This document shows, in pieces, positions 1 through 50,856 of a stretch of DNA of 64,000 bases. Each line of letters opens with the position of its first letter. Within the stretch, counting starts at the first letter, position 1. The stretch is taken from NCBI GenBank assembly GCA_051251855.1, contig JBPOGI010000006.1, forward strand, positions 96,001 to 160,000. The letters are read 5' to 3'. Source of the DNA: Roseibacillus sp. GTDB taxonomy: Bacteria; Verrucomicrobiota; Verrucomicrobiia; Verrucomicrobiales; Akkermansiaceae. The notes under the pieces are model-generated. The model worked only from the letters and a program-made list of their open reading frames with translations. It was not told the DNA's origin and searched no databases. The translations under genes were made by a program, and so were the position numbers.

Positions 1-805
1 GGCTGCTCAGTCCGAGTAAGAAGGCGGATGAAGGTTCTGGGATGGACTGCACGGAGCAGATATTACCTCCTCCAATTTCTTCGATAAACACGGCCTTCAC
101 ATTGTTGTCGTCATCCCAGGAACCGGCGTGAGTGTTGTCATTGACGCCTAGGAAAAATCTCACTTCCACGGATTGACCGGGATCGAGAATGCCGGTGTCG
201 ATGGCCCAGCTTGCGGTGGTAAGGGAGACGTTCCAACCGGGAACGTTGCTCGCGCCAAAGTCAGCATCTTGTTCGTCGATGGAATTGTAGGCTGCTTGGT
301 TATTGGATGCGAGTCCCAGAGTGGTGAACGAAATTCCATTATCCACACTGTAGGCTGCAAGAATACTGAAGTCCATAGACCCAGAGGAGCCCGAGGAAAC
401 TGCAGAACCGAAGGTGATGGAAATGGTGGAGTTGATGGAATTTCCAGAGTCATCCATGCCTGTGGAGAGGCAGTGATCGGCTCCTGGGGAGAGGACCATG
501 CACATATAGTCGCTACTACTCACGGTAGGAGTGCCCGCGCTCATGGTGCTGGGATTGTAGACGCGCGATGATGCTCCTCCCTGAACAGGGGACCATCCGG
601 CATATCCGGCACCGGCATCAATACCGCCCTCTTCGCACAAGGCGCCGATGGAGAGTGGGCAGGAAGGATCGGCATCAGGGGATAAGGAGCCGCCACACGA
701 AAAATTGACATCACAACAAATGGTTGTGGCGTGGGCCCCTGCTGCCAGTGCTCCAAGGAGGGATAGAGTGGCGAAGGGGCGGTTGGCGAGTTGTTTGGTT
801 TTCAT
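1..805 (-). CDS. PEP-CTERM sorting domain protein, 3' end beyond the left window edge
   Basis: ATG at 805 (MKTKQLANRPFATLSLLGALAAGAHA, signal-like) is in frame with ...VQSIPEPSSAFLLGLSS at the edge; not in ORF track because there is no stop inside the window. Confidence 0.8.
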   Translation of the reverse strand, partial: MKTKQLANRPFATLSLLGALAAGAHATTICCDVNFSCGGSLSPDADPSCPLSIGALCEEGGIDAGAGYAGWSPVQGGASSRVYNPSTMSAGTPTVSSSDYMCMVLSPGADHCLSTGMDDSGNSINSTISITFGSAVSSGSSGSMDFSILAAYSVDNGISFTTLGLASNNQAAYNSIDEQDADFGASNVPGWNVSLTTASWAIDTGILDPGQSVEVRFFLGVNDNTHAGSWDDDNNVKAVFIEEIGGGNICSVQSIPEPSSAFLLGLSS

Positions 806-16265: not shown

Positions 16266-16493
16266 ATGAACGATTTAAGCCATATCAAAACCAACTCGCT
16301 CGCAGCGGCCCAAGTGCACTGTTATCGCGGGATGTCCGGTTCGTTGATTGGCGGCATAGATGGCCTCCGGATTCAACCGACAGGGAATGCAAATGCGTTG
16401 AGTGCAAGACTCAGCTGGGAGAATGGCTCCAAAGGGATGCCCGCATTTGGTACCGAACTGAGCGAGAATAAACTGGCAAGCAGGATTACGTAA
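16266..16493 (+). CDS. putative leader peptide (uORF) of attenuator
   Basis: AGGAGG upstream; last codons and stop lie inside the antiterminator stem. Confidence 0.55.
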   Translation: MNDLSHIKTNSLAAAQVHCYRGMSGSLIGGIDGLRIQPTGNANALSARLSWENGSKGMPAFGTELSENKLASRIT

Positions 16494-16552
16494 ATCACTG
16501 ATTCATAAGGATTTTTACGGCCCTGCTTCCCCCACGGAGGCAGGGCCTTTTT
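16475..16552 (+). promoter_or_regulatory. transcription attenuator (antiterminator + intrinsic terminator)
   Basis: Terminator GGCCCTGCTTCC/GGAGGCAGGGCC-TTTTT (16519-16552); competing stem AAGCAGG..CGTAA (16478-16493) pairs with TTACG..CCTGCTT (16515-16528). Confidence 0.7.
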
Positions 16553-16609
16553 GTATTTAACCATTTAGAAGAACCGAGAAATTGAAATAAGAACGAGAAA
16601 GGGAGAGCT

Positions 16610-17972
16610 CACCCAGGTTGTCGCAATTGCGATGACGACCTGCGATGCGCAGACCCTGAAAACGAATTTGAAAGACAGAACCTGAAAAAGAAGAACCGCC
16701 GCCAGCTGTAACTGGCGACGGCTCCGACAGCACCACCGGACGGAATCCGATGAATCAACTGCGCAAGATGATTCTATCTAAGATGATGTTTCGGTCAAGA
16801 AAGACTTAACTTCACAGATAAGTGAAGGCAGGGAATTCATGTGCTCATTTTCAGGCCCAAAAGGCTTGTTGGAAGATGTGCCAAAGGAAACATCGAAAGG
16901 TCCGCCGAGAAATCCCCGCGGCCACGGTTCGAGAGAACGGTGACGGTGTTTGTTCCTAGAAAATGAATGGAACAAGGACATTCCTGTCCTTGTTCTATTT
17001 TGGAAGGAGCAGGCCTTTGTGGTTTGCTCCTCTCCAAATCGAAGTTCTCTGGAGTTGGAGCACGTCTTACGTTGAGGCGTCGCATGCTCATGCTCACAGA
17101 GGATTTCGATTTGGAGTTATCTGAATGGCGGTCTGGCGTCATGAGATAGGCGTGTCGAAAGGCACGTAAAGGGGCAGCAACCCTGTCTGCCCGCCTTCTT
17201 CCCTTTGGGGAGAAGGACAACCAGACAAACCTAGTTCCAATGACTTCGCGGCCGGCAGCTGCGGAGTGATGCTGGAAGATGGGAGATGCTCCATTGCGGA
17301 CGGCAAGTGCTCAAGCAATGGTGGGTGTAGCAACCCACAGAGTCTTTACGCCAAACATCGACAGTTGAGAACGAAGGGGAGTCACCGAGTGCGAAGCTTA
17401 GCGGCCAAGAGCCCGGTGGCAGTCCAGTGGTGCGGGAAAGGAGACGAGTCTTTCAAACTCGAAACCTCTCCCTAGTCGCGAAGACCGTAACGTCTGTAGC
17501 AACGGACGGGACAAGAGGCGTGTGGAATTTTGTTGTTGAAAAGGCAACGGACCCACCGGACGCACGCGTCTCATAGAAGGGTATCGGATAGTACGAGAGG
17601 AAATCCACCAGACTTTAGATCTGTTCCAAACGCAAAGATGCGTCCTTGATTGTGTGAAAATGGCTTAAGCCCTGACCAAATTTTGGAATCAGGGTCTGAC
17701 GGGACTCGCAAGGTCCCCGAGGATTGATGGAATGCCGCACGGTGGAGTAGCTCTCCTTCATGGCCCAGCCGGGTCGACGGTAGGTTGAACATCGAGAAGC
17801 ACAGTCAGAAGGGAGTGCCGCCACTTCCTCACCAAAGGCAGTCAGGTAGGAATACAAAGGGTGGGCCTCTAGCGCCCTCCTTTGTGGAAGACTTGGGAAG
17901 GTGAGCCGTCGCTGGCTCGCGATAATCCAAGGCGAGTTCCTATGTGCGAGGGTGTCCTTCTCAACCCTTGCT
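16610..17972 (+). ncRNA. large structured ncRNA, GOLLD-like (boundaries approximate; may be more than one RNA)
   Basis: No credible ORF over ~1.3 kb; dense hairpins with G-U pairs and GNRA-type loops; lies immediately 5' of a tRNA array. Confidence 0.6.
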
Positions 17973-17991
17973 ATCTATTTTCTAACAATGT

Positions 17992-18067
17992 GGGAGCGCA
18001 TGTGCCAGAGGGGCGATGCTGCCTTGCAAGCAGCGTGTGGCGGGTGCAAGTCCCGTCACCTCCACCA
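17992..18067 (+). tRNA. tRNA-Ala(TGC), atypical
   Basis: GCTGC-CTTGCAA-GCAGC; G3:U70; T-loop TGCAAGT; ACCA; two acceptor mismatches. Confidence 0.75.
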
Positions 18068-18075
18068 ATTTTTCT

Positions 18076-18151
18076 AGCGGGGAGAGTGTTGGTATCTCAA
18101 GAGGGTCTCATACGCCCTCGTCCGTGGGTTCGATTCCCACCTCCGCAACCA
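18076..18151 (+). tRNA. tRNA-Met(CAT), initiator-like (1:72 mismatch)
   Basis: AGGGT-CTCATAC-GCCCT; GTGGG-TTCGATT-CCCAC; ACCA. Confidence 0.8.
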
Positions 18152-18160
18152 TTTCTAAGG

Positions 18161-18234
18161 GGCGCGCAAACATTATGGTGATGTGCCTGACCTCCAATCA
18201 GGAAAACGGAGTTCGAGTCTCCGGCGTGCTACCA
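18161..18234 (+). tRNA. tRNA with TCC anticodon (Gly-like; C33 and A73 atypical, identity uncertain)
   Basis: GGCGCGC/GCGTGCT acceptor; CCTGA-CCTCCAA-TCAGG; TTCGAGT; ACCA. Confidence 0.65.
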
Positions 18235-18244
18235 ATTTTTCAAA

Positions 18245-18318
18245 GGTCCATTGATGTAAAAGTAGCCTCCCTGTCTGTCGAACAGGTTGAGCCGGAGCAT
18301 TACCGGCATGGACCGCCA
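18245..18318 (+). tRNA. tRNA-Asp(GTC), atypical T-loop
   Basis: GGTCCAT/ATGGACC; CCTGT-CTGTCGA-ACAGG; GCCGG-AGCATTA-CCGGC; GCCA. Confidence 0.8.
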
Positions 18319-18327
18319 TTTTCAAGT

Positions 18328-18404
18328 GGGGACCATGGTGTAACGAGTAAGCATCCGGCACTGTGAACGCCGCGGAATGGGTGCAAGTCCCATTGGTCCC
18401 CCCA
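18328..18404 (+). tRNA. tRNA-His(GTG)
   Basis: G-1:C73; loop CTGTGAA; T-loop TGCAAGT; CCA. Confidence 0.85.
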
Positions 18405-18415
18405 ACTTTTGGAAA

Positions 18416-18491
18416 TGTCCTCGACGGAGCTAGTGAACCGGACGGTTTGCAAAACCGATCATGCGGGGGGCGGAACCCCGGAGGACATCCA
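18416..18491 (+). tRNA. tRNA-Cys(GCA), atypical T-loop
   Basis: TGTCCTC/GAGGACA, U73, CCA; CGGT-TTGCAAA-ACCG; T-loop GGCGGAA. Confidence 0.75.
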
Positions 18492-18502
18492 TCTTTCTAA
18501 AT

Positions 18503-18575
18503 TCCAGCGTGGCGGAAAATCGCGCCGCTCTTGTAAAGCGGATGATGCAGGCAACCAGTCCTGTCGCTGGATCCA
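18503..18575 (+). tRNA. tRNA-Thr(TGT), atypical
   Basis: TCCAGCG/CGCTGGA; CCGCT-CTTGTAA-AGCGG; 8-nt T-loop CAACCAGT; TCCA. Confidence 0.7.
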
Positions 18576-18585
18576 ATTTGACAAT

Positions 18586-18660
18586 TCTTCTGTCGTCCAA
18601 AGGCGAGGACACCAGGCTACGAACCTGGAGATGCGAGTTCGAGTCTCGCCGGAAGTACCA
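18586..18660 (+). tRNA. tRNA-Arg(ACG)
   Basis: CCAGG-CTACGAA-CCTGG; GCGAG-TTCGAGT-CTCGC; ACCA. Confidence 0.85.
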
Positions 18661-18673
18661 TTCTCATGAGAAC

Positions 18674-18747
18674 GCGGGCTTGGTGTAAAAGAAGCACATC
18701 TGTTTTACATGCAGATCGAGGGGGTGCGATACCTCCAGCCCGTACCA
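18674..18747 (+). tRNA. tRNA-Val(TAC)
   Basis: GCGGGCT/AGCCCGT; TCTGT-TTTACAT-GCAGA; T-loop TGCGATA; ACCA. Confidence 0.8.
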
Positions 18748-18753
18748 ACTTTC

Positions 18754-18841
18754 ACGAAGTGTTCCCACCACGGTCTTCTAAGCCGTCGACGATAAACTGT
18801 GGGCAGGATGTCGAGGGGTTCGAGTCCTCCACTTCGTTCCA
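18754..18841 (+). tRNA. tRNA-like RNA with TCT (Arg) anticodon: no D arm, 8/4 acceptor/T stems, large variable region
   Basis: ACGAAGTG/CACTTCGT-T-CCA; ACGGT-CTTCTAA-GCCGT begins only 8 nt after the acceptor; GGGG-TTCGAGT-CCTC. Confidence 0.65.
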
Positions 18842-18846
18842 TTTTT

Positions 18847-18919
18847 GCCTGCGTAGCCCAACGGAAGAGGCGCCCGGCTTAGAACCGGTTCAGTGTGGGT
18901 TCGACTCCCTCCGCAGGTA
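18847..18919 (+). tRNA. tRNA-Leu(TAG), short variable loop, CCA not encoded
   Basis: GCCTGCG/CGCAGGT; CCGG-CTTAGAA-CCGG; TTCGACT. Confidence 0.8.
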
Positions 18920-18928
18920 CTTTTCTAA

Positions 18929-19002
18929 TTCCATGTAGCCCAACTGGTAGAGGCTCTCGACTTAAGATCGAGCAAGTGTCAGTTCGACTCTGACCATGGA
19001 AA
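18929..19002 (+). tRNA. tRNA-Leu(TAA), short variable loop, CCA not encoded
   Basis: TTCCATG/CATGGAA; CTCGA-CTTAAGA-TCGAG; GTCAG-TTCGACT-CTGAC. Confidence 0.8.
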
Positions 19003-19008
19003 TTTTCA

Positions 19009-19098
19009 GGAGTTCGAACCGGACAAGCGAGCCGGTCGCGTTTGCTAAACGCTGAGTTGCCATTTGGTAAAGGGGTGCAAGTCCTCCGAGCTCCGCCG
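19009..19098 (+). tRNA. tRNA-Ser(GCT), 8/4-type
   Basis: GGAGTTCG/CGAGCTCC, G73; GCGT-TTGCTAA-ACGC; long variable arm; 4-bp T stem; ends CCG. Confidence 0.75.
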
Positions 19099-19105
19099 TT
19101 TTTTA

Positions 19106-19193
19106 GGAGGGTGCCGCTAAGTGGCTGGCAACTGGTCTTGAAAACCAGGGTAGGCATTGCGTCCTAGGGGTTCGATTCCTCCACCCTCCGCCA
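19106..19193 (+). tRNA. tRNA-Ser(TGA), 8/4-type
   Basis: GGAGGGTG/CACCCTCC-GCCA; CTGGT-CTTGAAA-ACCAG; long variable arm; GGGG-TTCGATT-CCTC. Confidence 0.85.
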
Positions 19194-19196
19194 ATC

Positions 19197-19271
19197 ATCC
19201 CAGTCGTCTAATTGGTAAGACGCCCCGCGCCGAGCGGGGAGATGCCGCTTCGAAGTCGGCCGGGGAATCCC
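19197..19271 (+). tRNA. degenerate tRNA-Arg(CCG)-like
   Basis: Canonical D arm GTCT-AATTGGTA-AGAC; CCCCG-CGCCGAG-CGGGG (G33); weak acceptor; ends TCCC. Confidence 0.55.
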
Positions 19272-19277
19272 TTTTCT

Positions 19278-19352
19278 GGGTCTGTAGCTCAATTGGTAGA
19301 GCAACCGGTTTTTACCCGGTCGATGCGGGTTCGAGACCCGACAGACCCACCA
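19278..19352 (+). tRNA. tRNA-Lys(TTT)
   Basis: GGGTCTG/CAGACCC-ACCA; ACCGG-TTTTTAC-CCGGT; TTCGAGA. Confidence 0.9.
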
Positions 19353-19361
19353 ATTTTCAAC

Positions 19362-19517
19362 GCTCCTGTCAGCTATGGGTAGGCTTTCGCACTTTCACTG
19401 CGGCAAACCGGGTTCGAATGCATTTCTTGGTTACAAGACATTCTGAACATCCAGCTCGGGGCGAGCTGCATACCGCATGGACCTGAAGGATGAAGGTCAA
19501 TCCCGGCAGGAGTACCA
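19362..19517 (+). tRNA. tRNA-Glu(TTC) interrupted by an 82-nt insert in the T-loop
   Basis: GCTCCTG...TCGCA-CTTTCAC-TGCGG...CCGGG-TTCGAAT [19420-19501] CCCGG-CAGGAGT-ACCA. Confidence 0.8.
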
Positions 19518-19524
19518 ATTTTCT

Positions 19525-19599
19525 CGGGGGGTAGTTCAATGGGAGAACGCGCGCTTTGGAAGCGTGAGGTTGTCGGTTTGAGTCCGGCTCCCCCGACCA
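19525..19599 (+). tRNA. tRNA-Pro(TGG)
   Basis: CGGGGGG/TCCCCCG-ACCA; loop TTTGGAA; T-loop TTTGAGT. Confidence 0.85.
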
Positions 19600-19607
19600 C
19601 TTTTAAT

Positions 19608-19768
19608 TCCCGGATAGCTTAATCGGCAGAGCACTCGACTTTGACTCGAGCAGTGTGGGTTCGATTGCCCTCGCTCCGCTCATGCCATGCGATGTCCAGT
19701 TTCCTCCTCCGGAAACTGAGAAATTCGATGCGCATAAATGTGCGGAAGCATTCCCACTCCGGGCACCA
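19608..19768 (+). tRNA. tRNA-Gln(TTG) interrupted by an 86-nt insert in the T-loop
   Basis: TCCCGGA...CTCGA-CTTTGAC-TCGAG...GTGGG-TTCGATT [19667-19752] CCCAC-TCCGGGC-ACCA. Confidence 0.8.
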
Positions 19769-19789
19769 ATTTTAACCAAACATGAAACA

Positions 19790-20383
19790 ATGATAACACT
19801 AGTAAAAGCGAAAGACCTTCGCCCCATCTTGGAGACGGAACGTCTTCTCTTGCGTCCCCTTGAAATGAACGATGCTGCCGACGTGCGTCGCCTAGTCGGT
19901 GATATTCGTGTGGCCGAAAATCTAGGGCTTGTTCCGCATCCCTATCCAGAGGGACTGGCGGAAGAATGGATTTCTGGTCAGAGAGCAGAATATGAAGCGG
20001 GTAGGCATCTCACTTTTGCGATTACTACCAAAGCAACTAACGAACTGATGGGAGTAATCAGCCTTCATCCCAAAGAAGATCTTCTTCGCGCGTCAGTTGG
20101 TTACTGGGTTGGCGTTCCCTATTGGGGAAACGGCTACACCACGGAGGCTCTCAAGGAGATGCTCCGATTTGGCTTTGACGACTTTGCCCTGCAAAGAATC
20201 TTCGCTACTCACTTTGTCACCAATCCTGCTTCGGGCCGGGTGATGGAGAAAGTGGGGATGCAGCTCGAAGGCGTGATGAAGCTGGGTATCTCAAGATTTG
20301 GGGTGCTGCGCGACAGTATGCAGCGAGCGATCATCAAACCCGATTGGGAACGCCAGCGACAGGCGGAAGAACTTTACTGCTAG
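19790..20383 (+). CDS. GNAT N-acetyltransferase, RimJ/RimL family
   Basis: LETERLLLRP, VGYWVGVPYWGNGYTTEAL, NPASGRVMEKVGM; start moved to ATG 19790 because the longer ORF overlaps tRNA-Gln. Confidence 0.9.
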   Translation: MITLVKAKDLRPILETERLLLRPLEMNDAADVRRLVGDIRVAENLGLVPHPYPEGLAEEWISGQRAEYEAGRHLTFAITTKATNELMGVISLHPKEDLLRASVGYWVGVPYWGNGYTTEALKEMLRFGFDDFALQRIFATHFVTNPASGRVMEKVGMQLEGVMKLGISRFGVLRDSMQRAIIKPDWERQRQAEELYC

Positions 20384-20455
20384 ACCGTGTCGTGTGTGAA
20401 AGCGGCGGGTGGGCACTTTGCCAGCCCACTCGCCGCAAACCCATTTAACTTACCA

Positions 20456-21220
20456 ATGAATAAAAATAGAAATGAGCAGAGGCGTTTGAAATCAGAACGT
20501 CTGGAAACGCGAGACAAAGTGATTCTTGCCCTTGAACGAGAGCGCCGAGATTTGTGGAACCAGCTCCGGAAAGCTCCTTTGGAAGAACTGAAGGAGCCTT
20601 ATCAAAAAGGCTGGGAGCGGTTCTTTGTTCTCAGCGAGCAGGCGAAGCGGAGAAAGGATGCCGAGAAGCTAGAATTGGCCCTTTCCCTTATTCGGAATTA
20701 TCAGCGCTGTTCCGTGAATCCATTTCGACACTATCGCTACAAGAGCAAGCGCATGGTGCCATGGGAGCACAATTTGAGTGGATTAAGAGCGAGAGCTTTT
20801 CTATCTCAACGGACTTCCGAGGAGGTCATGCAATACTTTCGAGTGCGTCTGCGTGAGCCTTTGACTCGAGAGCGAGTTCGAGAATTGGTTCGTTCAGGTT
20901 GGCAGGGAAAATTTTGGTTCCGCTACCCTGAGTATGCGGTTTCTCAAGTGCAGCCATTTATGATCACACACTGCCGCGTAGCTTTGCCCGAGGTGGAGAG
21001 CCGCTTGTCTGAAGTAGAGGCGACCCTTCGAAAAGATGGTAACGAATATCGGCTTCGCCATCTCAAGGATTGGGGCTTTAGCTGTTGGCGTCGGATGGAT
21101 GAAAGGGCTCAAGAAATGAAGGAGGTGCCGCTGATTCGGAGAGAGATTGAAGAAGCGATCTTTGACTTCGAAAGTAAGCAGGAGCCTAGCTACTGGTGTC
21201 CCGTTCTTTTTCTCAATTGA
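20456..21220 (+). CDS. basic hypothetical protein
   Basis: Arg/Lys-rich ORF in the operon; LKEPYQKGWERFFVL motif. Confidence 0.75.
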   Translation: MNKNRNEQRRLKSERLETRDKVILALERERRDLWNQLRKAPLEELKEPYQKGWERFFVLSEQAKRRKDAEKLELALSLIRNYQRCSVNPFRHYRYKSKRMVPWEHNLSGLRARAFLSQRTSEEVMQYFRVRLREPLTRERVRELVRSGWQGKFWFRYPEYAVSQVQPFMITHCRVALPEVESRLSEVEATLRKDGNEYRLRHLKDWGFSCWRRMDERAQEMKEVPLIRREIEEAIFDFESKQEPSYWCPVLFLN

Positions 21221-21542
21221 AGGAGAACGCGACGTCAGTGGCTGCGCTGTGAGTTGCAATACCACGCTTTAAACTAGGAACAAACACCAGGGGATTTCGG
21301 CGGAGCTTTCGATGGGTTCTTTGACTCTGAAACGAGCAGTAGAAAACCCAAGAAATGCAGAAGAGAGCAGCATCAGTGAGAAGAAGAATCCGGCATTTAC
21401 TGGAGAAGAAAGAGAAGCAGAAAAAGAAGATTCAACCCGAGTCTCCCCGCGAGAAAACCGACTATGAACAATCGCCAGTGAATCAAATCACGGTGAGGAC
21501 GATAGAGGGTTTTTGGGGACAGCAATAAGAAGAGAAAAAGAG

Positions 21543-22142
21543 ATGAACACCGTAATGAATAAGAGCGTCGTGCTCGTGCTAAACAGGCACTGGCAAGCCG
21601 TCAATGTCACCACCCCCGCGGAGGCCTTTGCTTCCATGATGACCGATGCCGCGACAGGCTTGGATATTCGAGGGGAAGACTGGATGGTTCCGGTGAAGTG
21701 GCAGGATTGGGTCCAGTTGTCTGTTCGAGAAGGAGACTTCTCGGTAGGGACGGTGGACGGTCAGGTGCGCGTTCCGACGGTGATTGTCTTGAGTCGTTTT
21801 GACCGAGTGCCGCGCAAGCGCCTCAGTTTCTCTTTGCGTGGTCTTTGGCTGCGGGATGGGGGACGGTGTCAATATACCGGACGTTCTCTCCGGCCAGAGG
21901 AAGGCAATATCGACCACGTCATTCCTCGCTCGCGCGGGGGAGAGACTTCTTGGGAGAACTGCGTGCTTTCTGACCGCAAGGTGAACAACCGGAAAGCAGA
22001 CCGGACCCCGGAAGAAGCGGGCTTACGCCTGAATTCCGATCCGGTGCGTCCTCCGGAAGTGCCCGTCACCTATTTGCTGCGGAATCCGTTCCAAATTGCA
22101 GATTGGGAGGTCTTCCTCCCTGAACGCTCGGAAGAAAATTGA
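21543..22142 (+). CDS. HNH endonuclease
   Basis: VLVLN, RDGGRCQYTG, NIDHVIPRSRGG..SWENCV....VNNRK. Confidence 0.92.
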   Translation: MNTVMNKSVVLVLNRHWQAVNVTTPAEAFASMMTDAATGLDIRGEDWMVPVKWQDWVQLSVREGDFSVGTVDGQVRVPTVIVLSRFDRVPRKRLSFSLRGLWLRDGGRCQYTGRSLRPEEGNIDHVIPRSRGGETSWENCVLSDRKVNNRKADRTPEEAGLRLNSDPVRPPEVPVTYLLRNPFQIADWEVFLPERSEEN

Positions 22143-22224
22143 TAAAATCTCGACCAACTTCAAGGCAAGTGGACCTGCAGGGAATTCCCGGAACGGTCTC
22201 CACGCATCGGCTCGATGGTCGAAC

Positions 22225-22329
22225 TCTGAAGTAGCTCAGATGGTAGAGCAACGAACTCATAATTCGTCGGTCACGGGTTCGATCCCCGTCTAACAAAACA
22301 AGCCCCTTTCGCTCCAGATTGCTTCGGCA
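22225..22329 (+). pseudogene. tRNA(CAT) (Met/Ile2) with missing or displaced 3' acceptor strand
   Basis: Perfect D, anticodon (ACGAA-CTCATAA-TTCGT) and T arms to 22289, then no complement to TCTGAAG until CTTCGGC at 22322-22328. Confidence 0.7.
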
Positions 22330-22430
22330 GTCAGCTCGAACTTGGCCCAGCGAATCACGCCGCTCCTCAGTCCCGAATGTTTCCGGATGAGTGACGCGAT
22401 GATTCCCGCCGGGAAAGAGTGGAGTGGGGG
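22303..22430 (+). ncRNA. unidentified ~130-nt structured RNA
   Basis: Closing stem CCCC..CGCTCCA/TGGAGTG-GGGG; GATTGC-TTCG-GCAGTC hairpin; AATCA-CGC/GCG-A-TGATT stem. Confidence 0.45.
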
Positions 22431-22469
22431 AGGCTTACAAATTTAACCCCAAAGAAAGAAAAAGAAGAA

Positions 22470-23237
22470 ATGAATGAATGGATGATCGTAGCAGTGGTTG
22501 TCGCAGTGGCGGCCGCTCTTGGAATGGTGAAAGTGATCCTAGGCAACCGCCAGAAGGTGATCGTGAATAGTTTTGAGAAGGCCCTCATGTTCTACAATGG
22601 CAAGTTGGTGAAAGAGCTGGAAGCGGGTGAGACCGTTTTCTGGGGTCAAGGATACGAAGTGAAACGTGTCGATGGCCGTTGGCAGGAGTTGGTGGTGCAA
22701 AGCCAAGAATTCCTGACCGCCGACCGAGCTTCCGTGAAGGTGAGCGGAGTGGTGCGTTTTCGCGTGGCGGATGCGCTGAAGTATTTCGGCGAATCCCAAG
22801 CGCCTCTCGTGACCGTTCATACCGCGACTCAGATGGCACTGCGTGATGTGGTGGGAAGTCTGGGCGTGGAAGCGGTGCTGGAGCGTCAAGACGGTCTCGG
22901 TGATCGAATGAAGGCTCTGGTTGCGGCCCCAGCGGAAGCTCTTGGAATCGAAGTCAACGCTGTCGTGGCGCGTGACCTGATGCTCGCCGGTGACCTGAAG
23001 AAGGCCTACCAGGCGACTTTGAGCGCGAAACAAGAAGCTCTCGCAGGACTTGAAAAGGCCCGTGGCGAGGCGGCTGCTATACGTGTGAAAGCGAATGCTG
23101 CCCGGGTTTACGAAAAGAACCCTGCCTTGCTGCAACTCGAAGCTCTCGAGACCGTGGCGAAGCTGGGGGACGGAATGAACAACCATCTGGTGCTTGGATC
23201 ACTCGATTCCTTGCTGAAGATGGTGAAAACTGAATGA
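22470..23237 (+). CDS. SPFH/band-7 (slipin-like) membrane protein
   Basis: N-terminal TM; QEFLTADR, QMALRDVVG, LEKARGEAAAIR..ANAARV..NPALLQL. Confidence 0.88.
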   Translation: MNEWMIVAVVVAVAAALGMVKVILGNRQKVIVNSFEKALMFYNGKLVKELEAGETVFWGQGYEVKRVDGRWQELVVQSQEFLTADRASVKVSGVVRFRVADALKYFGESQAPLVTVHTATQMALRDVVGSLGVEAVLERQDGLGDRMKALVAAPAEALGIEVNAVVARDLMLAGDLKKAYQATLSAKQEALAGLEKARGEAAAIRVKANAARVYEKNPALLQLEALETVAKLGDGMNNHLVLGSLDSLLKMVKTE

Positions 23238-23302
23238 TAGAAAAACTGGGGACGCCTCGCCGTGAATGCTGCGGGGCGTCCCTTACAAACTTTTGAAAAA
23301 CA

Positions 23303-24877
23303 ATGAGCCTGATTGGACAGGAAGAATTAATTGAAGCGGGTTGGGAACCTGGTCCGCACTTTGGAGAGATGATCGTGAAGCTGCGTGAATATGAAGAGCG
23401 TGGTATTTGCGATAAGAAGTATTTGCTCAAGCTGTTAGCGAAGGACTTTGGGGAACCAGAGCCTAAGTTGGCGATGCGTCCTGCGCCGGTGAAGTGCGCG
23501 GAAGCGATTCGTCCCGAGAACGATGAGGAGAAGGAGAATGTGTCGAGAGTTCGTCAGAAGATGAGCGAGCTCTTGAAGGTTCCCGTGATTTCTCAAGGGG
23601 CGGTGATGCCCGATGCGTGTCCGGCGGGAATGCATGAAGCGACCATTCCGGTGGGCGGGGCCATTGCGGTGGAAAATGCGATCATTCCAAGCGCGCATTC
23701 AGCGGATGTTTGCTGCTCCATGTTTGCCTCTTTCTACGTGGAACGCAGTAGTGTCGCCAGCGAGCTGGATGCTTTGACGGCGGCGACTCGTTTCGGTCCC
23801 GGTGGTCGTCACTATGACCACTTGGTGGAGCATACCGTGAATGAGGAAGACTTTTGGTCGAATCCGTTTTTGAGCGGGTTGAAGGACTACGGACGCATTC
23901 ACATGGCTGACCAAGGGGACGGGAATCACTTTGCCTACTTGGGTGAAGTCGAGGTGACCTCTGATGTTGTGAGCAAGCTGCACTTGGCTGGATATGGCGC
24001 GCTTGCGGATCAGCTTTCGGGTTCTGGAGAGAATCAAGAGACGCTGCGTCTTCGCGTTCTGGTGACTCATCATGGGTCGCGAGGATTGGGAGCGCATCTC
24101 TATAAGCGAGGTCAAAAGGCGGCTTTGAAGCAAACCGACAAGGCAGCGCGAGGGGTTCCTTCGGCAGCGGCGTGGTTGGATGCGCGCAGTGATGACGGCC
24201 GTGCTTATTGGGAGGCTTTGCAATATGTGGGTCTTTGGACTCGTGCCAACCACGAGGCTATCCATGAGCGTTTCTTGAACAACATCGGAGCGGAAAAGCT
24301 GGCGAGCTTTGGCAATGAACATAACTTCGTGTGGAAGCGTGGGGATGTCTTCATGCATGGCAAGGGAGCGACTCCAGCTTGGAAAGACTCCGATGGGCGT
24401 CCGCTGTTAGGATTGATTCCGCTCAATATGGCGGAGCCGATTCTGATGGTGCTGGGCGGCGACCAGAGCGAGTTCCTTTCCTTTGCTCCTCACGGTGCCG
24501 GCCGAAATGTTTCCCGAACCAAGTTGCGTGGTCGTTACGGCGACGAGGCCACTCGTCAGAATGTGATTGCGCATCATACCCGGGACATCGACGTGCGCTG
24601 GTATTGTGGTAAGGCGGACCTGAGCGAAACTCCGGTGGCCTACAAAAATGCCGACCAGGTGAAGGCGCAGATTCAGGAATTCGGCCTCGCGGAAATCGTG
24701 GCTGAGATTCGTCCTCTGGGATGCATCATGGCCGGCGAGAGCCCTCGGATGGATTGGAAGAAGTATCGCAAGGAGCAGTTAAGTCCGAAGCAGAAGCGTC
24801 AGATTCAGCATCGTGCGGAGCGACGTAAGACCAAGCAAGGTCTCGGGAATTGGGACGAGCCCGATTCCTTAGATTGA
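23303..24877 (+). CDS. rtcB: RtcB family RNA ligase
   Basis: MPDAC, IPVGG, ADVCC, GDGNHF, THHGSRG, HNF, HGKGAT, HGAGR, AYKN motifs. Confidence 0.92.
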   Translation: MSLIGQEELIEAGWEPGPHFGEMIVKLREYEERGICDKKYLLKLLAKDFGEPEPKLAMRPAPVKCAEAIRPENDEEKENVSRVRQKMSELLKVPVISQGAVMPDACPAGMHEATIPVGGAIAVENAIIPSAHSADVCCSMFASFYVERSSVASELDALTAATRFGPGGRHYDHLVEHTVNEEDFWSNPFLSGLKDYGRIHMADQGDGNHFAYLGEVEVTSDVVSKLHLAGYGALADQLSGSGENQETLRLRVLVTHHGSRGLGAHLYKRGQKAALKQTDKAARGVPSAAAWLDARSDDGRAYWEALQYVGLWTRANHEAIHERFLNNIGAEKLASFGNEHNFVWKRGDVFMHGKGATPAWKDSDGRPLLGLIPLNMAEPILMVLGGDQSEFLSFAPHGAGRNVSRTKLRGRYGDEATRQNVIAHHTRDIDVRWYCGKADLSETPVAYKNADQVKAQIQEFGLAEIVAEIRPLGCIMAGESPRMDWKKYRKEQLSPKQKRQIQHRAERRKTKQGLGNWDEPDSLD

Positions 24878-24883
24878 TGGACG

Positions 24884-35314: not shown

Positions 35315-36166
35315 CATGGCTCTCTTGGTGATGCTGAACTGGTAAAGCGCCTTTTGGAAGAGGAAGAGATTGCCGGGATTGTGAATTTTGCCGCGCAGAC
35401 TCACGTTGATCGCTCGATTGATCATCCCCTGAATTTTTGGGATGTGAATGTGATGGAGACCTTGGTCTTTATGGAAGCCGTTCGGAATTATTTTGAGATC
35501 CTTCCTCCAGACAAAAAGGCCTTATTTCGGGTGCTTCATGTTTCGACAGATGAAGTTTTTGGAAGTCTTTCGAGGGATGAAGCGCCGTTTGATGAGCAGT
35601 CTCCTTTACGGCCCAATAACCCCTATTCAGCGAGTAAAGCGGCAAGCGAACATTTTTTGAGAGCTTATTTTCATACCTTTGGATTTCCCTTCATCATCAC
35701 CAATTGCACAAATAACTACGGGCCGTTTCAGTTTCCTGAGAAGCTGATTCCACTCGTCATTAGCAAGGCTCTTAATCAGGAGACGATTCCGATCTACGGG
35801 GATGGAACGAATCGGAGAGACTGGATCTATGTGGAGGATCATGTAGAGGCGCTAATCATGGCCTTTCAAAAAGGGGAAATTGGCGAGTCATACTGCGTCG
35901 GAGCCGGTGAGGAAAAAAGTAATTTGGAGTTGGTTGAGGAAATCTGTGAAATCCTCGAAGACCTCGTGCCCTGTGAAATTGGTCGCTATCGCGATCAGAT
36001 ATCGTTTGTGACGGATCGCCTGGGGCATGATTTTCGCTATGCGATCGATGCCTCGAAGCTCCAATCTCAGACGGGATGGCGTCCAAAATTTAGTTTTTCC
36101 AATGGCTTAAGAAGGACGGTGGAGTGGTATCTTGAAAAGGAGATCGCTTCCCGAAAGATGAAATGA
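35315..36166 (+). pseudogene. rfbB: dTDP-glucose 4,6-dehydratase, 5'-truncated by the IS
   Basis: NFAAQTHVDRSI, HVSTDEVFG, YSASKA, NNYGPFQFPEKLIP; N-terminal GxxGxxG missing. Confidence 0.85.
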
Positions 36167-36178
36167 CGGGTGTCTTAG

Positions 36179-36685
36179 TTACCTAATTTCAGTGGATTGA
36201 TCCTTTGGAGAAAGGATGGGGGCAGAATGCAGCCAGGGGAAATTCCAATCTGGGTCATTCCAGAGGAGTGTTTTCTCGGATTCGGGGTGATAGGGTGCGT
36301 CGGTGAGGTAGGAGATTAGGGCTGGCTCGTGACCGGTGACGAGAAATCCATGAGCGCAGCCCTTTGGGACAAAGAGTTGGTTTTGAGCCGAGGCGTCCAG
36401 GTGATAGACGGCATAGTGCAGGTAGGTGGGGGAGTCGGGCCTGAGGTCGGCGACGATGTCTTGCACGCTTCCTTCGAGGAGGATCAGAAATTTGCTCTGG
36501 GCGTGGGGGCTTTGATAGTGAAGTCCGCGAAGTGTTCCCGGATTGGAATGGGAGATGTTTTGTAAAACCCAGTTGGCTTTAAAATCGTCTCCGGTCAGGG
36601 CGGGCAGGAACCATCCTCGCTCATCTTGGAGCTTGGGTCTGCTGGAGATGGTGACGTCTTGAATGCTATCAGTCTGGCGATTCAT
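36179..36685 (-). CDS. rfbC: dTDP-4-dehydrorhamnose 3,5-epimerase
   Basis: DERGWF, GTLRGLHYQ, DLRPDSPTY, VPKGCAHGF, LSPKD. Confidence 0.9.
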   Translation of the reverse strand: MNRQTDSIQDVTISSRPKLQDERGWFLPALTGDDFKANWVLQNISHSNPGTLRGLHYQSPHAQSKFLILLEGSVQDIVADLRPDSPTYLHYAVYHLDASAQNQLFVPKGCAHGFLVTGHEPALISYLTDAPYHPESEKTLLWNDPDWNFPWLHSAPILSPKDQSTEIR

Positions 36686-38025
36686 TTTGTGAAGAGTTCG
36701 GTGGCGGCGGTGGCTCCCATGCGCATCGCGCTGTGCATGTTGGGGTAGGTGAAGGCTCCTTGACGACCGGTAGTACGAAGGTTGCTGAAGTTCGAGAGGT
36801 AGGTGGTGATTATCTCGAATGATTGTTCGAAGCCATTTACGAAGATGGGGTAGGCGTGGGTGGCGTGGATGAGGTGGTGGCTGACGACTTGGTCGGGGGT
36901 GCAGAGACCTTCGGCTTCGAGGTCGCCGAGGATTTGCGGGAGGGCGTCGCCGGTCCATTTTTCATCGCCGATTTCGCAGGTGGTCTCGACGATGAGGGTG
37001 GTGTGTCCTGCTGGGCGGACGAGGAGGCCGGCATTTTTCGGTTCGCCGACGCGATGGTAGATGCGGTCACGGTAGTAAGTGTAGAGGGCGTCCATGCACT
37101 TTTCCCTTTTTACAAGGAGGGCGTAGACGGTCATGGGTTTGAAGCGAAGTTGGTTGGCGGCGTGGAGAATCTCGGGAGGGGCTGGTGGATCAAGGGCTTT
37201 GATGAGGTGAGGAAGCGGGATTGTGGAGAGGAATTGTGAGTCTTCAGAGGAGGAGTGATTGGTGCCGGTGATTTTTCCCTGATGGTGGGTGATTTTGGTA
37301 ATGGGAGAATTTGGGATGAGATCGGCTCCGCGTTTTTGGAGGGAGGTGGCGAGGCTGCGAGGGAGGGTTTCGGAGCCGGTCTTTGAGTAGTGGAGAGTCT
37401 CAAAGCGGAGGGCGCCTTCAGTGGCGTTGCGGGGTTTGGTGAGCCGGAGTTTTTCGAGGAGGTTTTTGAAGACATCGACGGCGGAAAGGCGGGGCATTTT
37501 TCGGCGGACGAACTCGGCGGAGAGATCGCGGGGGTGGATGCCCCAGTAGCGGTGGGTAAAGTCGCGGAAGAAGAATTCGTAGAGGGGGTCGCCGTAGAGT
37601 TCGATGAGGGCGGATTCGGCGTCGTCGCCGGGGGTGAAGTTGCTGAAGCGGGTTTGGAGCTCGGCGATGAGGAGGCCGGTGAGACAGCGGGCTAGGGTGA
37701 CGGGAGGGATGCCGGCGAGGATGTCGCGTCCGCGGAGAGGGTAGTGGTAGATTTTGCCGCCCCATTTGATGTGGGATTTGAGGGGGACTTCGATTCGCTC
37801 TTCTCCCATCGCTTCTTTGCAGGTGGCAAAGATTTCGGGATCGAAGGCGTGGAGCATGTGGACGCCGAGGTCGAACCAATTGCCTCCGTGTTGGTGGCCG
37901 GCGGCGAGTCCACCGAATTGGGATTCTTTTTCGAAGAGGCTGACTTTAGCGCCTAGTTCGAGAGCGGTGTGGGCGGCGTAGAGTCCGCAAGGGCCTCCGC
38001 CGAGGATGGTGAGGTGCTTTTCCAT
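36682..38025 (-). CDS. FAD-dependent oxidoreductase (protoporphyrinogen oxidase/UDP-galactopyranose mutase-like)
   Basis: ILGGGPCGL, EKESQFGG, GRQGAFTY.NM. Confidence 0.8.
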   Translation of the reverse strand: MEKHLTILGGGPCGLYAAHTALELGAKVSLFEKESQFGGLAAGHQHGGNWFDLGVHMLHAFDPEIFATCKEAMGEERIEVPLKSHIKWGGKIYHYPLRGRDILAGIPPVTLARCLTGLLIAELQTRFSNFTPGDDAESALIELYGDPLYEFFFRDFTHRYWGIHPRDLSAEFVRRKMPRLSAVDVFKNLLEKLRLTKPRNATEGALRFETLHYSKTGSETLPRSLATSLQKRGADLIPNSPITKITHHQGKITGTNHSSSEDSQFLSTIPLPHLIKALDPPAPPEILHAANQLRFKPMTVYALLVKREKCMDALYTYYRDRIYHRVGEPKNAGLLVRPAGHTTLIVETTCEIGDEKWTGDALPQILGDLEAEGLCTPDQVVSHHLIHATHAYPIFVNGFEQSFEIITTYLSNFSNLRTTGRQGAFTYPNMHSAMRMGATAATELFTK

Positions 38026-38027
38026 GC

Positions 38028-38438
38028 TTATCGCCAGGGGTTGAGAATTTTCACGCCGGTGTCGTGGAAGTGTTTGACGTTTCGGGTGACGACGGTGAGG
38101 TCATGGACAAGGGCGGTGGCGGCTATGAGCAGGTCCGGCAGGTCACGGCTGGGGAGGAGGGCGAGCTGAGCGGCGGTTTGGGAGATTTTCGAAGTGACGG
38201 GGATGATCCGTTTTTCGAAGGAGGGCCTGAGGGTGAGGTCGAGCCAATTTTAAATGGCTGCGGCGAAATTGGGGTCTTTGGGGTGGACGCGATGAATGCC
38301 GTGTTGGATTTCGAATTCACTGATGGTTGAGATGAACGAAAGGCGGAGGTCCGAGGTGCTTTCCCACTGGGCGAACTCGGGGGACCAGCGGCTGGAATTG
38401 CGCAGGTGGGAGAGTGTATTGGTGTCCAAAAGGAACAT
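38028..38438 (-). pseudogene. PIN-domain (VapC) toxin with in-frame TAA at codon 63
   Basis: MFLLDTN...AAAI*NWLD...DLLIAATALVHDLTVVTRNVKHF.DTGVKILNPWR continues in the same frame. Confidence 0.85.
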
Positions 38439-38720
38439 TTAGTGTTCGAAGGTGATCGTTTTTGGAGTTGGGAGGTCAACTTTTGGGAAGTCCCAGTCCT
38501 GATTTTGGTCGAGGTCGGTGAGGTCCATGGCGAGGGCGGAGCCGAGGGATGTTCTGGGCTCGGGTGCGCGGGTTTCGAGGCGAAGGGGGAAGGAGCGACC
38601 GTTGCGAGTGATGGTGACACAGCCTTCGGTGAGAAGGGCTTCGAAGAATTCGCCGGTGCGCGTTTTGAGCTCGGTGGCGATGAGGGTCTTCATGCTCATA
38701 TTAAAGACTGAATCGACCAA
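38439..38720 (-). CDS. Phd/YefM-like antitoxin
   Basis: ATELKTRTGEF..., VTITRNGR; directly upstream of the PIN gene. Confidence 0.75.
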   Translation of the reverse strand: MVDSVFNMSMKTLIATELKTRTGEFFEALLTEGCVTITRNGRSFPLRLETRAPEPRTSLGSALAMDLTDLDQNQDWDFPKVDLPTPKTITFEH

Positions 38721-38747
38721 TTAGGTCAAGTCGATTGATTTGGCTGA

Positions 38748-39887
38748 TTAAGAATCGAGGTTGTGAGAGGCGAGGGCTTGATCTTGCATGAGGTCGGCGG
38801 CGAGGGTGACTTGGGCTTCGAGGGTGGCGATGGGGACTTTTTGTGGGTCGAGGGGTTCGACGAGGCCGTAGAGTTCGGCGGAGCCGATGGCGTGGGAGAT
38901 TTTTGTGCCGGCGGGGAGGTCGCGTTTGGCGTAGGCGTAAACGTCGCAGGTTTTTTTCGTTGGTGGAGTGAGGATGGCTTTGCCGGAGGCGGCTTGGAGG
39001 ATGGCTTTTGGGGTTTCGAGGTGGCAGAGGTGGTAGGGGCGGTAGAGGAGTTGGTATTTCCCGCAGGGGCTCGTACGAAGTTTGTAGTAGTTTAGGTAGA
39101 AGGCTTGCTCGGTGGGGATTTCTTTTTTTGGGGTGACGATGAGGTAGACGCCGCCGCCGGGTTCGGCGCCGAGGAGGTAGTCGATGCGTGGGGTGCCGTT
39201 ATAAGAATCGAAGTCGAAGAGGGTGAGGGCTTCTTCAACTCGTGCGGCGCGGGGGCCGGTCATGCCTCCTGCGGGTGGGAGGTAGCCGAGGGCGTTGGCA
39301 AGGACGGCCATCTCGATGTGGAGCTTGGTGCCATCGGTGTAGGCGCAGCATTGGGTGGCGGAGAGATTGCGCTTTTCGGCCTCGTGTTTGATGGAGTCGG
39401 GGGTGGCGCTGCGGTCGAGGAAGCCTTTGATGTTGCCGGCTTGGACGATGTCGAAGCCCATGAGGTCGGCTTCTTCAATCATGGTGGCGAGAACGCCGTG
39501 TTGGTCTCCGGCATCGGAGGTGAGGGTGAGCTTGTTTTTTGTGGCGAGAGCGGCGAGGCGGGGGCCGTGAGCGAGGTCGACCTCGGCATTCATGAGGACG
39601 ACGTGGGCTTGGTTTTCGAGGGCGGCTTGGCAGTAGTCGGCGGCGGCTTCGATGGAGTTGGTGGCTTCGACGAGAACGTCGATGGGGTGATTTTTCAGGA
39701 GGTCATGGAAGTCGCTTCCGTGTGCTGCGTCGGGGGCCAGGGTGGCGACGTCTGCAGCGGTCGCTTGATCGAGGTCGGCGACCCAGGTGAGGTCCATGCC
39801 GGGAGTGGCGTTGACTTGGAAGGCGATGCCGCGGCCCATGCAGCCGGCACCGACGAGGCCGACTCTGATATTATTCTGAGAGGTCAT
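38748..39887 (-). CDS. NAD(P)-dependent oxidoreductase with C-terminal SAF domain
   Basis: VGLVGAGCMGRG, GDQHG, DGTKL..EM, YRPYHLCHLE, AKRDLPAG. Confidence 0.85.
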   Translation of the reverse strand: MTSQNNIRVGLVGAGCMGRGIAFQVNATPGMDLTWVADLDQATAADVATLAPDAAHGSDFHDLLKNHPIDVLVEATNSIEAAADYCQAALENQAHVVLMNAEVDLAHGPRLAALATKNKLTLTSDAGDQHGVLATMIEEADLMGFDIVQAGNIKGFLDRSATPDSIKHEAEKRNLSATQCCAYTDGTKLHIEMAVLANALGYLPPAGGMTGPRAARVEEALTLFDFDSYNGTPRIDYLLGAEPGGGVYLIVTPKKEIPTEQAFYLNYYKLRTSPCGKYQLLYRPYHLCHLETPKAILQAASGKAILTPPTKKTCDVYAYAKRDLPAGTKISHAIGSAELYGLVEPLDPQKVPIATLEAQVTLAADLMQDQALASHNLDS

Positions 39888-40020
39888 GAAGGTGGGTTTT
39901 GATTGAGCTAGAGTTGGAGGATGAGGATGGCTGCGATTTGTTTTAACGGGAGAAAGGTGGTGGTGTCGAGGAGGGGTTGAGGAGGGGTTGAGGAGGGGTT
40001 GAGGATAGTATGCTGGCGAG

Positions 40021-42480: not shown

Positions 42481-43187
42481 ACGAGGGCAGGTGTCAGCTG
42501 CGAATAAGGCGTACTTTTTTTGTGATCTTCCATCATGCTGGTTACAAATCACATCAGGTGAATGAAGCCCGGCCACACGTCGCACGACACCATCACTCAA
42601 TGGAGAGCGAGGGTGGTGTTGAAGGGCTTGATCTGCTGACGAAATCATCGGGAATTATTGGGCATTAAGATTTTTTAAAGATTAAGTCAACCAGAATATC
42701 CGATTTCCTGTGGGAAACAGTTAGGAAAAGCCGTCGGACGACACCTATAATTGAGTTCGACGACAATTAGAAAATGAATTGTTCCACGGCAAAATCGGGA
42801 GGTCATCATTCTTTCCCAACACAGCCGATAAGGACCCTCCCTGCGGTTGTGTTGGGAAAGAATGACGACCGGCGAATGTGTTCCACAGTTGTCGTTGGGG
42901 TTTAGTTTTAATTGTCGTTCTACAAAAGCAGGTGTTTATTCCCATGCTCATTATTTTTTCTAAAACTGCCGTGAGCTTGATCAGAAATCTGAGATCTGGG
43001 GGGTTTTGGCTCGATGTCTTTCAAGGACACGACAAGCGAAGCGCTAGGTTGACAGCTGGAAGAGATTCTTGATCTTCCAGAGTAGTAAAGCGCCCGAAGG
43101 GTGGGCAAAGTGTATCAAAGGAATACCGCCATTCAAATAGGGGGTTCGCACCAGGGGTCCTACTCAAGGGGGGCGGAGAGAAGTTAC

Positions 43188-43488
43188 CCACAGATTTCGG
43201 AGATTTTCACAGATTAAGACTTATACCACTCCGCAAACCAGAAGAGAGGAAAGGCGGGCGGTTTTGGCGAATCTCTTCGTTGTCATCATGTCCAGATATC
43301 CATATCAGGAAATGATTCCGTCTCGATCTTCACCAAAATCACCTCGCCTCATTCCTCTCTTCTGTTTCGCTACTTGGTATTATGAATGCGGTGGGAAAAG
43401 CGAGAGGCGGGATGAGAGAGTGGCCTCCATTGTCATCATCAGGAAAGCTCGTATCCCTCTGCTCTGTGAAAATCTGCGAAATCGGTGG
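43188..43488. repeat. MITE/REP-like unit with 26-bp terminal inverted repeats
   Basis: CCACAGATTTCGGAGATTTTCACAGA vs TCTGTGAAAATCTGCGAAATCGGTGG. Confidence 0.6.
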
Positions 43489-43508
43489 ATAAGCAAGCCT
43501 TGGGCTCC

Positions 43509-45110: not shown

Positions 45111-45127
45111 AATGATGAGGCTGAGGT

Positions 45128-46969: not shown

Positions 46970-47221
46970 GAGTGAAAGCTAAAGGAAAGATGAATCTGGA
47001 GCTCTTCTGAATGCCTCGGAGCTTGCCCCGGGCTCTTCTGAATGCCCCAGGGTTTCTTTACTTCTGCTAGGGAGTTCCTGCTTCATATCGCCATTTCACA
47101 CCAACTCAAAACCAGGTCAAGACTTTGAAAGATGCCTGACATGTTTTACTATATATAGTGATGGTGTTTGTAGGGGGGCGAGGGCTCGCAACTTACCCGC
47201 CCCAAATTATCGTTATTCGCT

Positions 47222-49894: not shown

Positions 49895-50063
49895 GAGATA
49901 GGGTCGCCTTGGTTTTTCTTTTTCGCAAGTGAGAGCGTTGGCTCGGTTGGTCAGGGACTGGTTTGTCCCTGGTCCTTTGGCTTTCGCTTCGGTCTTTGTG
50001 CTGTCGTGGCGGGAGGGAGATTTTATTTTTCGAAGGGGAGTGGAGTTCTGATAGAGTGCGCTT

Positions 50064-50846: not shown

Positions 50847-50856
50847 AGTTGTTAGT

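Follow-up and report, generated by a model that had tools for sequence, protein, structure and literature searches.

Among bacterial RNAs whose function is unknown, GOLLD is one of the largest, and GOLLD RNAs were recently shown to build RNA-only cages. Those solved by cryo-electron microscopy form closed homo-oligomers, from 10-mers to 14-mers, and the same reports document a tRNA embedded in the linker as a GOLLD trait (PMC12286853, PMC12990946). GOLLD also occurs in a mycobacterial tRNA cluster, described as carrying both a GOLLD and an HNH gene (PMC6582537). The L-arrays are tRNA arrays acquired by transfer and linked to an HNH homing endonuclease and to rtcB, with Verrucomicrobia among the phyla that carry them, and the array of Anabaena is induced under translational stress (PMC8421152). 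Here we examine positions 16610-17972 of a 64,000-nucleotide window from Roseibacillus sp. (contig JBPOGI010000006.1, positions 96,001 to 160,000), which a preliminary description made from the letters alone had taken for one structured RNA of about 1.3 kb, GOLLD-like and possibly an enlarged variant. The interval is a real, strongly structured RNA locus whose core is a divergent GOLLD. We put at roughly 80% the probability that it forms the non-coding front of a tRNA-array operon that has spread horizontally, an L-array type island spanning about 16560-24880 in the chromosome of marine Akkermansiaceae (Roseibacillus and its kin), with four separable parts: a minus-strand small RNA gene, a leader motif that we call block b, an inserted palindrome, and GOLLD. 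The GOLLD core and the tRNA island belong to kinds already known; to these the locus adds a pair of uncatalogued RNA elements.

A permissive Rfam scan of 16300-18100 matched the conserved 3' domain of GOLLD at 17513-17967 on the plus strand, across positions 1-416 of the 416 in model RF02032 (116.3 bits, E 1.8e-31). The same scan gave no intron, RNase P, ROOL, OLE or convincing tmRNA. The earlier recognition of GOLLD, from a conserved 3' part of about 500 nucleotides beside a tRNA cluster, thus holds, with a full-length match below the Rfam cut-off and the array right behind it. In RF02032 a long-range helix brackets the central hairpins, and all 10 of its pairs form in the window (UUGAUUGUGU with GCACAGUCAG); because the helix is fully paired despite a sequence unlike the consensus, which we read as compensatory change, it argues for homology. 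Terminal hairpins with the CGCAAG and AUAAUCC motifs are present in the RF02032 alignment, and two helices picked out by eye in the preliminary description, CCCTGA/TCAGGG and GGGAC-TCGCAAG-GTCCC, turn out to be modelled hairpins of the match. The linker at 17576-17650 aligns poorly to the model. In two relatives a tRNA lies inside the GOLLD match, within this linker (tRNA-Ile in G106, tRNA-Arg in G168); the window's linker holds none. The core was found in 7 of 151 sampled genomes of the family, representing 4 of 20 genera and scoring 98.4-153.1 bits, and in none of 150 further genomes taken from across the phylum.

Upstream of this match lies a second domain, 17122-17512 on the plus strand, in keeping with GOLLD, whose 5' domain stands apart, is less conserved, measures about 350-420 nucleotides and is attached through a variable linker. 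An alignment of the eight GOLLD-bearing loci, one of them broken off by a contig end, shows about 390 nucleotides of conservation ahead of the core, beginning near 17122. RNAalifold closes 17128-17488 into a multi-helix domain of 113 pairs, 44 with compensatory change, with a closing helix at 17128-17130/17486-17488 and a terminal hairpin at 17491-17508 behind it. In a counting control, 97.2% of cells are paired as against 38-44% when the partners are slid, 45 pairs are changed on both sides as against 5-10, and none of 500 shuffles reached the observed pairing values. Several G.U pairs are invariant, which places the domain on the plus strand. Two more of the helices first noted by eye, CGTGTC-GAAA-GGCACG and CGTCTGT-AGCA-ACGGACG, correspond to helices 4 and 20 of this covariation-supported fold. 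Over 17000-17970 as a whole, the plus strand folds at -401.5 kcal/mol (z -6.8) and the minus strand at -344.9 kcal/mol (z -4.1).

For comparison with canonical GOLLDs, loci were drawn from viral contigs by a 3'-end pattern, which returned more than 120 contigs, of which 80 loci were used; of eight checked by Rfam, six proved to be GOLLD, with 185-307 bits. A sequence profile built from the 3' domain of the window family found 11 of these 80 loci at E<=1e-3, and an nhmmer profile of its 5' domain found three at the same threshold (L119 at 2e-5, L137 at 8e-4, L077 at 1e-3). The three 5'-domain matches lie immediately upstream of the cores of viral GOLLDs scoring in that range of 185-307 bits and run co-linear with them, sharing recognisable blocks. 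Because these matches are correctly placed and ordered, both domains of the window are homologous to canonical GOLLD; the canonical 5' edge falls at about 17122-17127 of the window.

Just before that edge stand two hairpins on the plus strand, the smaller at 17005-17031 and the long one at 17032-17116. The latter had been listed among the helices from the start, and it is a near-perfect hairpin (z -8.5). A long hairpin of 20-27 base pairs, differing in sequence, directly precedes the 5' domain in all eight loci (z -5.7 to -9.8). None of three canonical viral GOLLDs tested has it, and a profile of 17000-17122 found no match in the 80 viral loci; the long 5'-edge hairpin is lineage-specific. GOLLD here is about 850 nucleotides long (17122-17970), or about 970 with the hairpins at 17005-17116 counted from 17000, and a length of 850-970 lies within the known range, in which the solved RNAs measure 700 nucleotides (S. 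agalactiae) and 833 nucleotides (env-38), with "many exceeding 800". The idea of an enlarged variant of about 1.3 kb must therefore be given up: the supposed enlargement consists of a leader motif, a probable small RNA on the opposite strand, a repeat insertion and the lineage-specific hairpin. The other option raised in the preliminary description, that the 5' part is a separate new RNA, is the better reading, there being at least two elements of this kind, one on the opposite strand.

Contigs from four sequencing runs (X18, X19 and X20 filed as RNA, X11 guessed to be RNA) were compared over 16500-18100. Contigs from near relatives, mostly 95-99% alike, cover 17120-17901, and one run also covers 17998-18093; this speaks weakly for expression of GOLLD proper in relatives. 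In three runs, drawn from two studies, contigs start at 17146, and one abuts adapter at 17120, a weak hint that the 5' end of GOLLD lies near the foot of the long hairpin. The contigs do not cover 16500-17093, which says nothing about whether the leader or the small RNA is expressed. In runs X19 and X11, 84 nucleotides replace 45 in the GOLLD linker (17582-17628), with a T-arm-like word in the loose ends there; the linker in these relatives may hold a tRNA-like insert.

Comparison with relatives by BLAST, in which the query fell apart into blocks, showed that a block at about 16841-16965 is also present in GOLLD-less genomes, directly before tRNA genes. This is block b, a structured leader motif of the tRNA-array operon on the plus strand, with a core at 16863-16955 and a match to covariance model R1 at 16826-16984. 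In an alignment of 15 copies, 9 of 22 predicted pairs show changes on both sides, and 98.8% of cells are paired as against 25-59% with the partners slid; one G.U pair is invariant in all 15 copies, and the motif is therefore assigned to the plus strand. The single-sequence fold is unremarkable (z -0.73), so that support for block b is comparative only, and no Rfam match besides noise appears at E<=10. Covariation among homologues is thus found in both the 5' domain and block b. Two helices proposed in the preliminary description fared less well, since the long-range pairing of GATGTTTC with GAAACATC is not conserved, its ACATC pairing locally, with covariation, to GATGT at 16875-16879, and the CAGGTTGTC/GACGACCTG helix is confined to this genome.

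The block b model finds exactly one copy in each of 25 of the 151 family genomes, from 8 of the 20 genera, and none in the 150 other genomes of the phylum sample. A same-strand tRNA array lies downstream in 20 of the 25 loci (19 called by ARAGORN, one by Rfam); among the other five, three have no more than about 560 nucleotides before the contig ends, one (G118) has its array about 4.3 kb further on, and one has none within 1.5 kb. Seventeen of the 25 carrier genomes have block b without GOLLD. Because block b is present before tRNA arrays whether GOLLD is there or not, it is a head piece of these arrays; GOLLD is optional and, where it occurs, is inserted between block b and the tRNAs. In GOLLD-less islands, gaps of 300-700 nucleotides separate block b from the first tRNA, or one tRNA from another (L047 1662-2250, L048 1662-2035 and 2111-2700, L044 1008-1500); they give no Rfam match, and at the place where the window has GOLLD they may hold other structured RNAs not yet catalogued.

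This separability bears directly on the view that 16610-17972 is a single plus-strand RNA of about 1.36 kb, its 5' third being the variable 5' region of GOLLD expanded in this lineage. Such an RNA would account for the presence of block b upstream of GOLLD in all eight GOLLD-bearing loci and for the lack of any protein-family match across the interval, and it would fit a two-part module that occurs both in block b (16870-16899) and in the GOLLD 5' domain (17273-17364). Against it, block b stands directly before tRNAs in the 17 carriers without GOLLD and is found in none of the 80 viral GOLLD loci (best E 0.56); its distance from GOLLD varies by hundreds of nucleotides among genera; a repeat lies between the two in some genomes only; and 16683-16766 reads on the minus strand. 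The start of the RNA-library contigs at 17120 points weakly the same way, absent cover being no evidence. We regard a single RNA across the interval as improbable.

The shared module itself reads TGGAAGATG(T/G)G followed by (G/C)AAACATCGA(A/C)AG, and in both places GATG pairs with CATC (helix 2 of block b and helix 11 of the 5' domain). Noticed by reading, it could be a duplication, a common tertiary motif or a shared site of binding.

Between block b and the GOLLD hairpins lies a perfect palindrome of 26 nucleotides with 10-base-pair arms (16970-16995, assigned to neither strand), identified as a dispersed repeat from relatives and from a genome search. It is absent at this place in the closest relative (G004) and present in G008, and the window's own genome holds four sites at no more than 2 mismatches, as against none for a reversed control; the palindrome is an insertion between block b and GOLLD. 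Its form resembles a repetitive extragenic palindromic (REP) element or a bidirectional terminator, with copies at C8:250970, C8:273389 and C9:295847 of G000 and several in G004. The palindrome matters for the proposal that block b is a stand-alone gene for a trans-acting small RNA, with GOLLD and the array served by a promoter of their own. Block b is indeed a compact conserved unit with its own covarying helices, a hairpin and T-rich tail (16970-17003) follow it in the window and in G008, and the array of G118 begins only about 4.3 kb further on. That hairpin, however, is the inserted repeat, missing in G004; in G005 a tRNA-Met begins a few nucleotides past the block b match and in G033 a tRNA about 90 nucleotides past it, with no terminator and no room for a promoter; and in the window only about 35 nucleotides, with no promoter-like site, separate the repeat from the GOLLD hairpins. 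A stand-alone gene is thus unlikely, if somewhat less so than a single long RNA, and we continue to read block b as the leader of the array.

Upstream of block b, about 16764 to 16683 on the minus strand looks like a candidate small RNA gene of about 80 nucleotides directed away from GOLLD. By its fold and covariation, it would comprise a 5' hairpin, a terminator hairpin (16725-16692) and a U-run. The 84 nucleotides of 16683-16766 fold at -42 kcal/mol on the minus strand (z -5.84) and at -22.5 kcal/mol on the plus strand (z -1.74). The preliminary description had favoured the plus strand throughout; that stands for 17000-17970 and fails for this segment. The hairpin at 16692-16725 keeps a fixed distance upstream of block b in nearly all loci, and across 25 loci 8 of its 13 pairs show compensatory change. 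Read on the minus strand 93.6% of cells are paired, as against 77.2% on the plus strand, with 56 G.U cells against 5, and a T-rich tail follows in 16 of the 25 loci. A sigma-70-like promoter site, TTGACC and TAGAAT separated by 16 nucleotides, lies ahead at 16771-16798 on the minus strand with 10 of 12 consensus matches; the pattern TTGACN-15..18-TAnnnT precedes the hairpin in 18 of the 25 loci, and in alignment A1 the -35 box does not vary. The Rfam model ctRNA_pGA1 (RF00236) gives a weak match at 16680-16756 on the minus strand with 30.2 bits (E 0.0015), below the gathering cut-off of 45 bits. Like countertranscript RNAs of that type, the candidate is of similar size, has a two-hairpin shape with a U-tail and its own promoter-like site, and runs opposite to the neighbouring transcription unit; unlike them, it has no plasmid replication context, and its score remains at 30 bits. 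Between the promoter-like site and block b stands a short hairpin, CTTCAC-AGATAA-GTGAAG (16810-16827, no strand assigned), which the alignment shows to be variable: other loci have different hairpins there.

The conservation of these two elements also addresses the suggestion that the region upstream of GOLLD is the relic of a decaying mobile element, a set of integration scars and dead tRNA or GOLLD pieces with no present function. The island does look mobile and does contain degenerate pieces, among them the tRNA-like element at 17990-18067, the tRNA fragment at 22230-22291 and the inserted palindrome. Yet across eight genera many compensatory changes have left the pairing of block b and of the minus-strand hairpin intact, and both are single-copy and fixed in place, which would not be expected of decaying sequence, and we consider such a relic very improbable. 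Nor does the interval look like a protein gene or a decayed intron: none of seven open reading frames (ORFs) tested within 16610-17972 matches Pfam, and no intron match was found.

Downstream, ARAGORN calls ten tRNAs on the plus strand in 1.5 kb (18076-19599: Met, Gly, His, Arg, Val, Leu, Leu, Ser, Lys, Pro), and Rfam adds a further match at 19611-19678 on the same strand. Before the first of them, 17990-18067 on the plus strand folds into a cloverleaf-like, tRNA-like element with an anticodon-loop-like CUUGCAA; neither ARAGORN nor the Rfam tRNA model calls it, and the searches gave weak tRNA-like or tmRNA noise only. In G004, a tRNA-Met follows GOLLD directly at the place of this element. The RNA had been said to end about 20 nucleotides before the first tRNA; this is right if the tRNA-like element is counted, which begins about 23 nucleotides past the end of the GOLLD match at 17967, and wrong for the first called tRNA at 18076. 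Behind the array, all on the plus strand, come a GNAT acetyltransferase (19655-20383), a protein of 277 amino acids with no assigned family (20387-21220), an HNH endonuclease (21513-22142), an SPFH/Band 7 protein (22419-23237) and an RtcB RNA ligase (23303-24877). The 277-residue protein shows a faint PriCT_1 (primase C-terminal) match below the cut-off (E 0.007) and has homologues in the islands of G004 and G022. Right behind the HNH gene and away from the array lies a plus-strand tRNA fragment (22230-22291; Rfam tRNA model positions 6-65, 50.9 bits), which homing or recombination may have left behind.

In about 11 kb examined at each of eight other loci, an HNH gene follows the array in six (60-79% identity) and RtcB in four (66-69%), and the host flanks of the window, including PPIase and sulfatase, are not common to these loci. 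The locus thus shares with L-array islands a dense same-strand tRNA array, a patchy distribution (the leader occurs in 25 of 151 genomes), differing flanks and linked HNH and RtcB genes, and with mycobacterial tRNA clusters a GOLLD inside or beside the array. It differs from the described L-array islands in having only 10-13 tRNAs and an HNH gene downstream rather than upstream. As a GOLLD, it agrees with RF02032 in its full-length 3'-domain match with the long-range helix, its separate closed 5' domain, its variable linker and its site at a tRNA array; it departs from it in its long perfect 5'-edge hairpin, its score below the Rfam cut-off and its setting, a chromosomal island in Verrucomicrobiota rather than a phage or prophage. 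The flanking proteins in the window are ordinary cellular ones (Ser/Thr kinase, GHMP kinase, HhH-GPD glycosylase, aminotransferase, PPIase, sulfatase), and neither virion nor integrase genes, nor any phage or prophage setting, were found in the flanks examined. Patterns of the window family had no match in viral contigs, and blastn against deposited phages found none. Records with the conserved words, where named, are Verrucomicrobiota, Akkermansiaceae, Roseibacillus; a word of the 5' domain was absent from the metagenome contigs searched, and a block b word occurred in only two. In a cultured, named Roseibacillus strain, L024/G004, the locus is 87% identical across the whole 1.4 kb.

What is supported directly is the GOLLD homology of both domains, the covarying structures of the leader, the 5' domain and the minus-strand terminator hairpin, the strands of these elements, and the separability of leader and GOLLD. 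On this basis we propose a working scheme for the locus. A single plus-strand primary transcript would start upstream of block b and run through GOLLD into the tRNAs. The long perfect hairpin might serve as a double-strand-specific (RNase III-type) processing site or as an insulating site, freeing GOLLD from the leader, and the 3' end of GOLLD could be set by an RNase P cut at the tRNA or tRNA-like element about 23 nucleotides past the model match. Freed GOLLD would then assemble with its own copies into a closed multimeric shell, by analogy with the solved GOLLDs. As proposed for cyanobacterial L-arrays, the island may sustain the tRNA pool when translation is stressed or tRNAs come under cleaving attack, HNH serving as the agent of spread and RtcB as a repair ligase. 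More tentatively still, block b and the neighbouring divergent or antisense small RNA might together form an undescribed RNA-based module for control and processing of acquired tRNA-array operons, an RNA counterpart of the protein-repressor control of the Anabaena array. There, direct-repeat operator sites are found, and a ribosome-targeting antibiotic is the inducer; here, the array is headed by a leader of structured RNA together with a divergent small RNA. GOLLD would then be optional cargo between leader and tRNAs, and the TGGAAGATG...AAACATCGA module would point to a common binding partner or docking contact. We consider this last proposal possible rather than probable.

Several observations weigh against our reading of the locus. 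The window's GOLLD, at 116.3 bits, falls below the Rfam gathering cut-off of 150 bits, and in gathering mode Rfam reports only tRNAs across the whole window; six of the seven GOLLD matches in the family likewise fall short, G168 (153.1 bits) alone exceeding the cut-off. Similarity of the 5' domain to canonical GOLLD is weak, reaching 3 of the 80 viral loci, and the covariation is drawn from 8 to 25 related sequences of a single bacterial family. That block b precedes GOLLD in every GOLLD-bearing locus means that a mature RNA could extend across both. A consensus scan and inspection of the alignments by eye found no plus-strand promoter, and in this genome the palindrome with its T-rich plus-strand tail (16970-17003) could end transcription ahead of GOLLD. 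The contigs come from relatives, give neither ends nor strand and may include DNA carry-over, and both the processing steps and the multimeric shell are things that we infer.

We know of no report of GOLLD in Verrucomicrobiota. The locus provides a chromosomal GOLLD in a phylum with cultured marine species, together with sister genomes that have the same island head minus GOLLD, and this series of presence and absence offers a natural way to ask what GOLLD adds to a tRNA array. The Rfam cut-off misses essentially the whole clade, with six of its seven matches below it. The locus also adds the two uncatalogued RNA elements at the front of transferable tRNA arrays; how such arrays are regulated is known from a single cyanobacterium only.

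One candidate for the function of the leader was set aside. Leaders with boxA in rRNA operons resemble this locus in that a conserved leader precedes a long untranslated, highly structured transcript. The window's own assembly has no 16S gene, and the rRNA leaders of four relatives were used instead (L192 of G106, L194 of G004, L193 of G118, L191 of G162); they carry a conserved boxA-like word, GATCTTTnACAGTG (GTTCCTTTACAGTG in G004), about 250-330 nucleotides before the 16S start. The island leader matches the G004 rRNA word at 9 of 13 positions, and its word is conserved only in genus g1; a boxA-type antitermination leader was rejected.

At its left limit the non-coding block is bounded by a plus-strand hairpin and T-run resembling an intrinsic terminator (16519-16555, a stem of 12 pairs, 9 of them GC), which marks the end of a small upstream ORF and can be aligned in G004, G008 and genus g11. 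The ORF itself (16266-16493) has no Pfam match, is common only to G004 and lies outside the island in other genera. Elsewhere in the window, GC skew reaches 0.38-0.54 at 36000-40000, 43000-47000 and 50000-52000, far above the remaining window, and these segments overlap long minus-strand ORFs.

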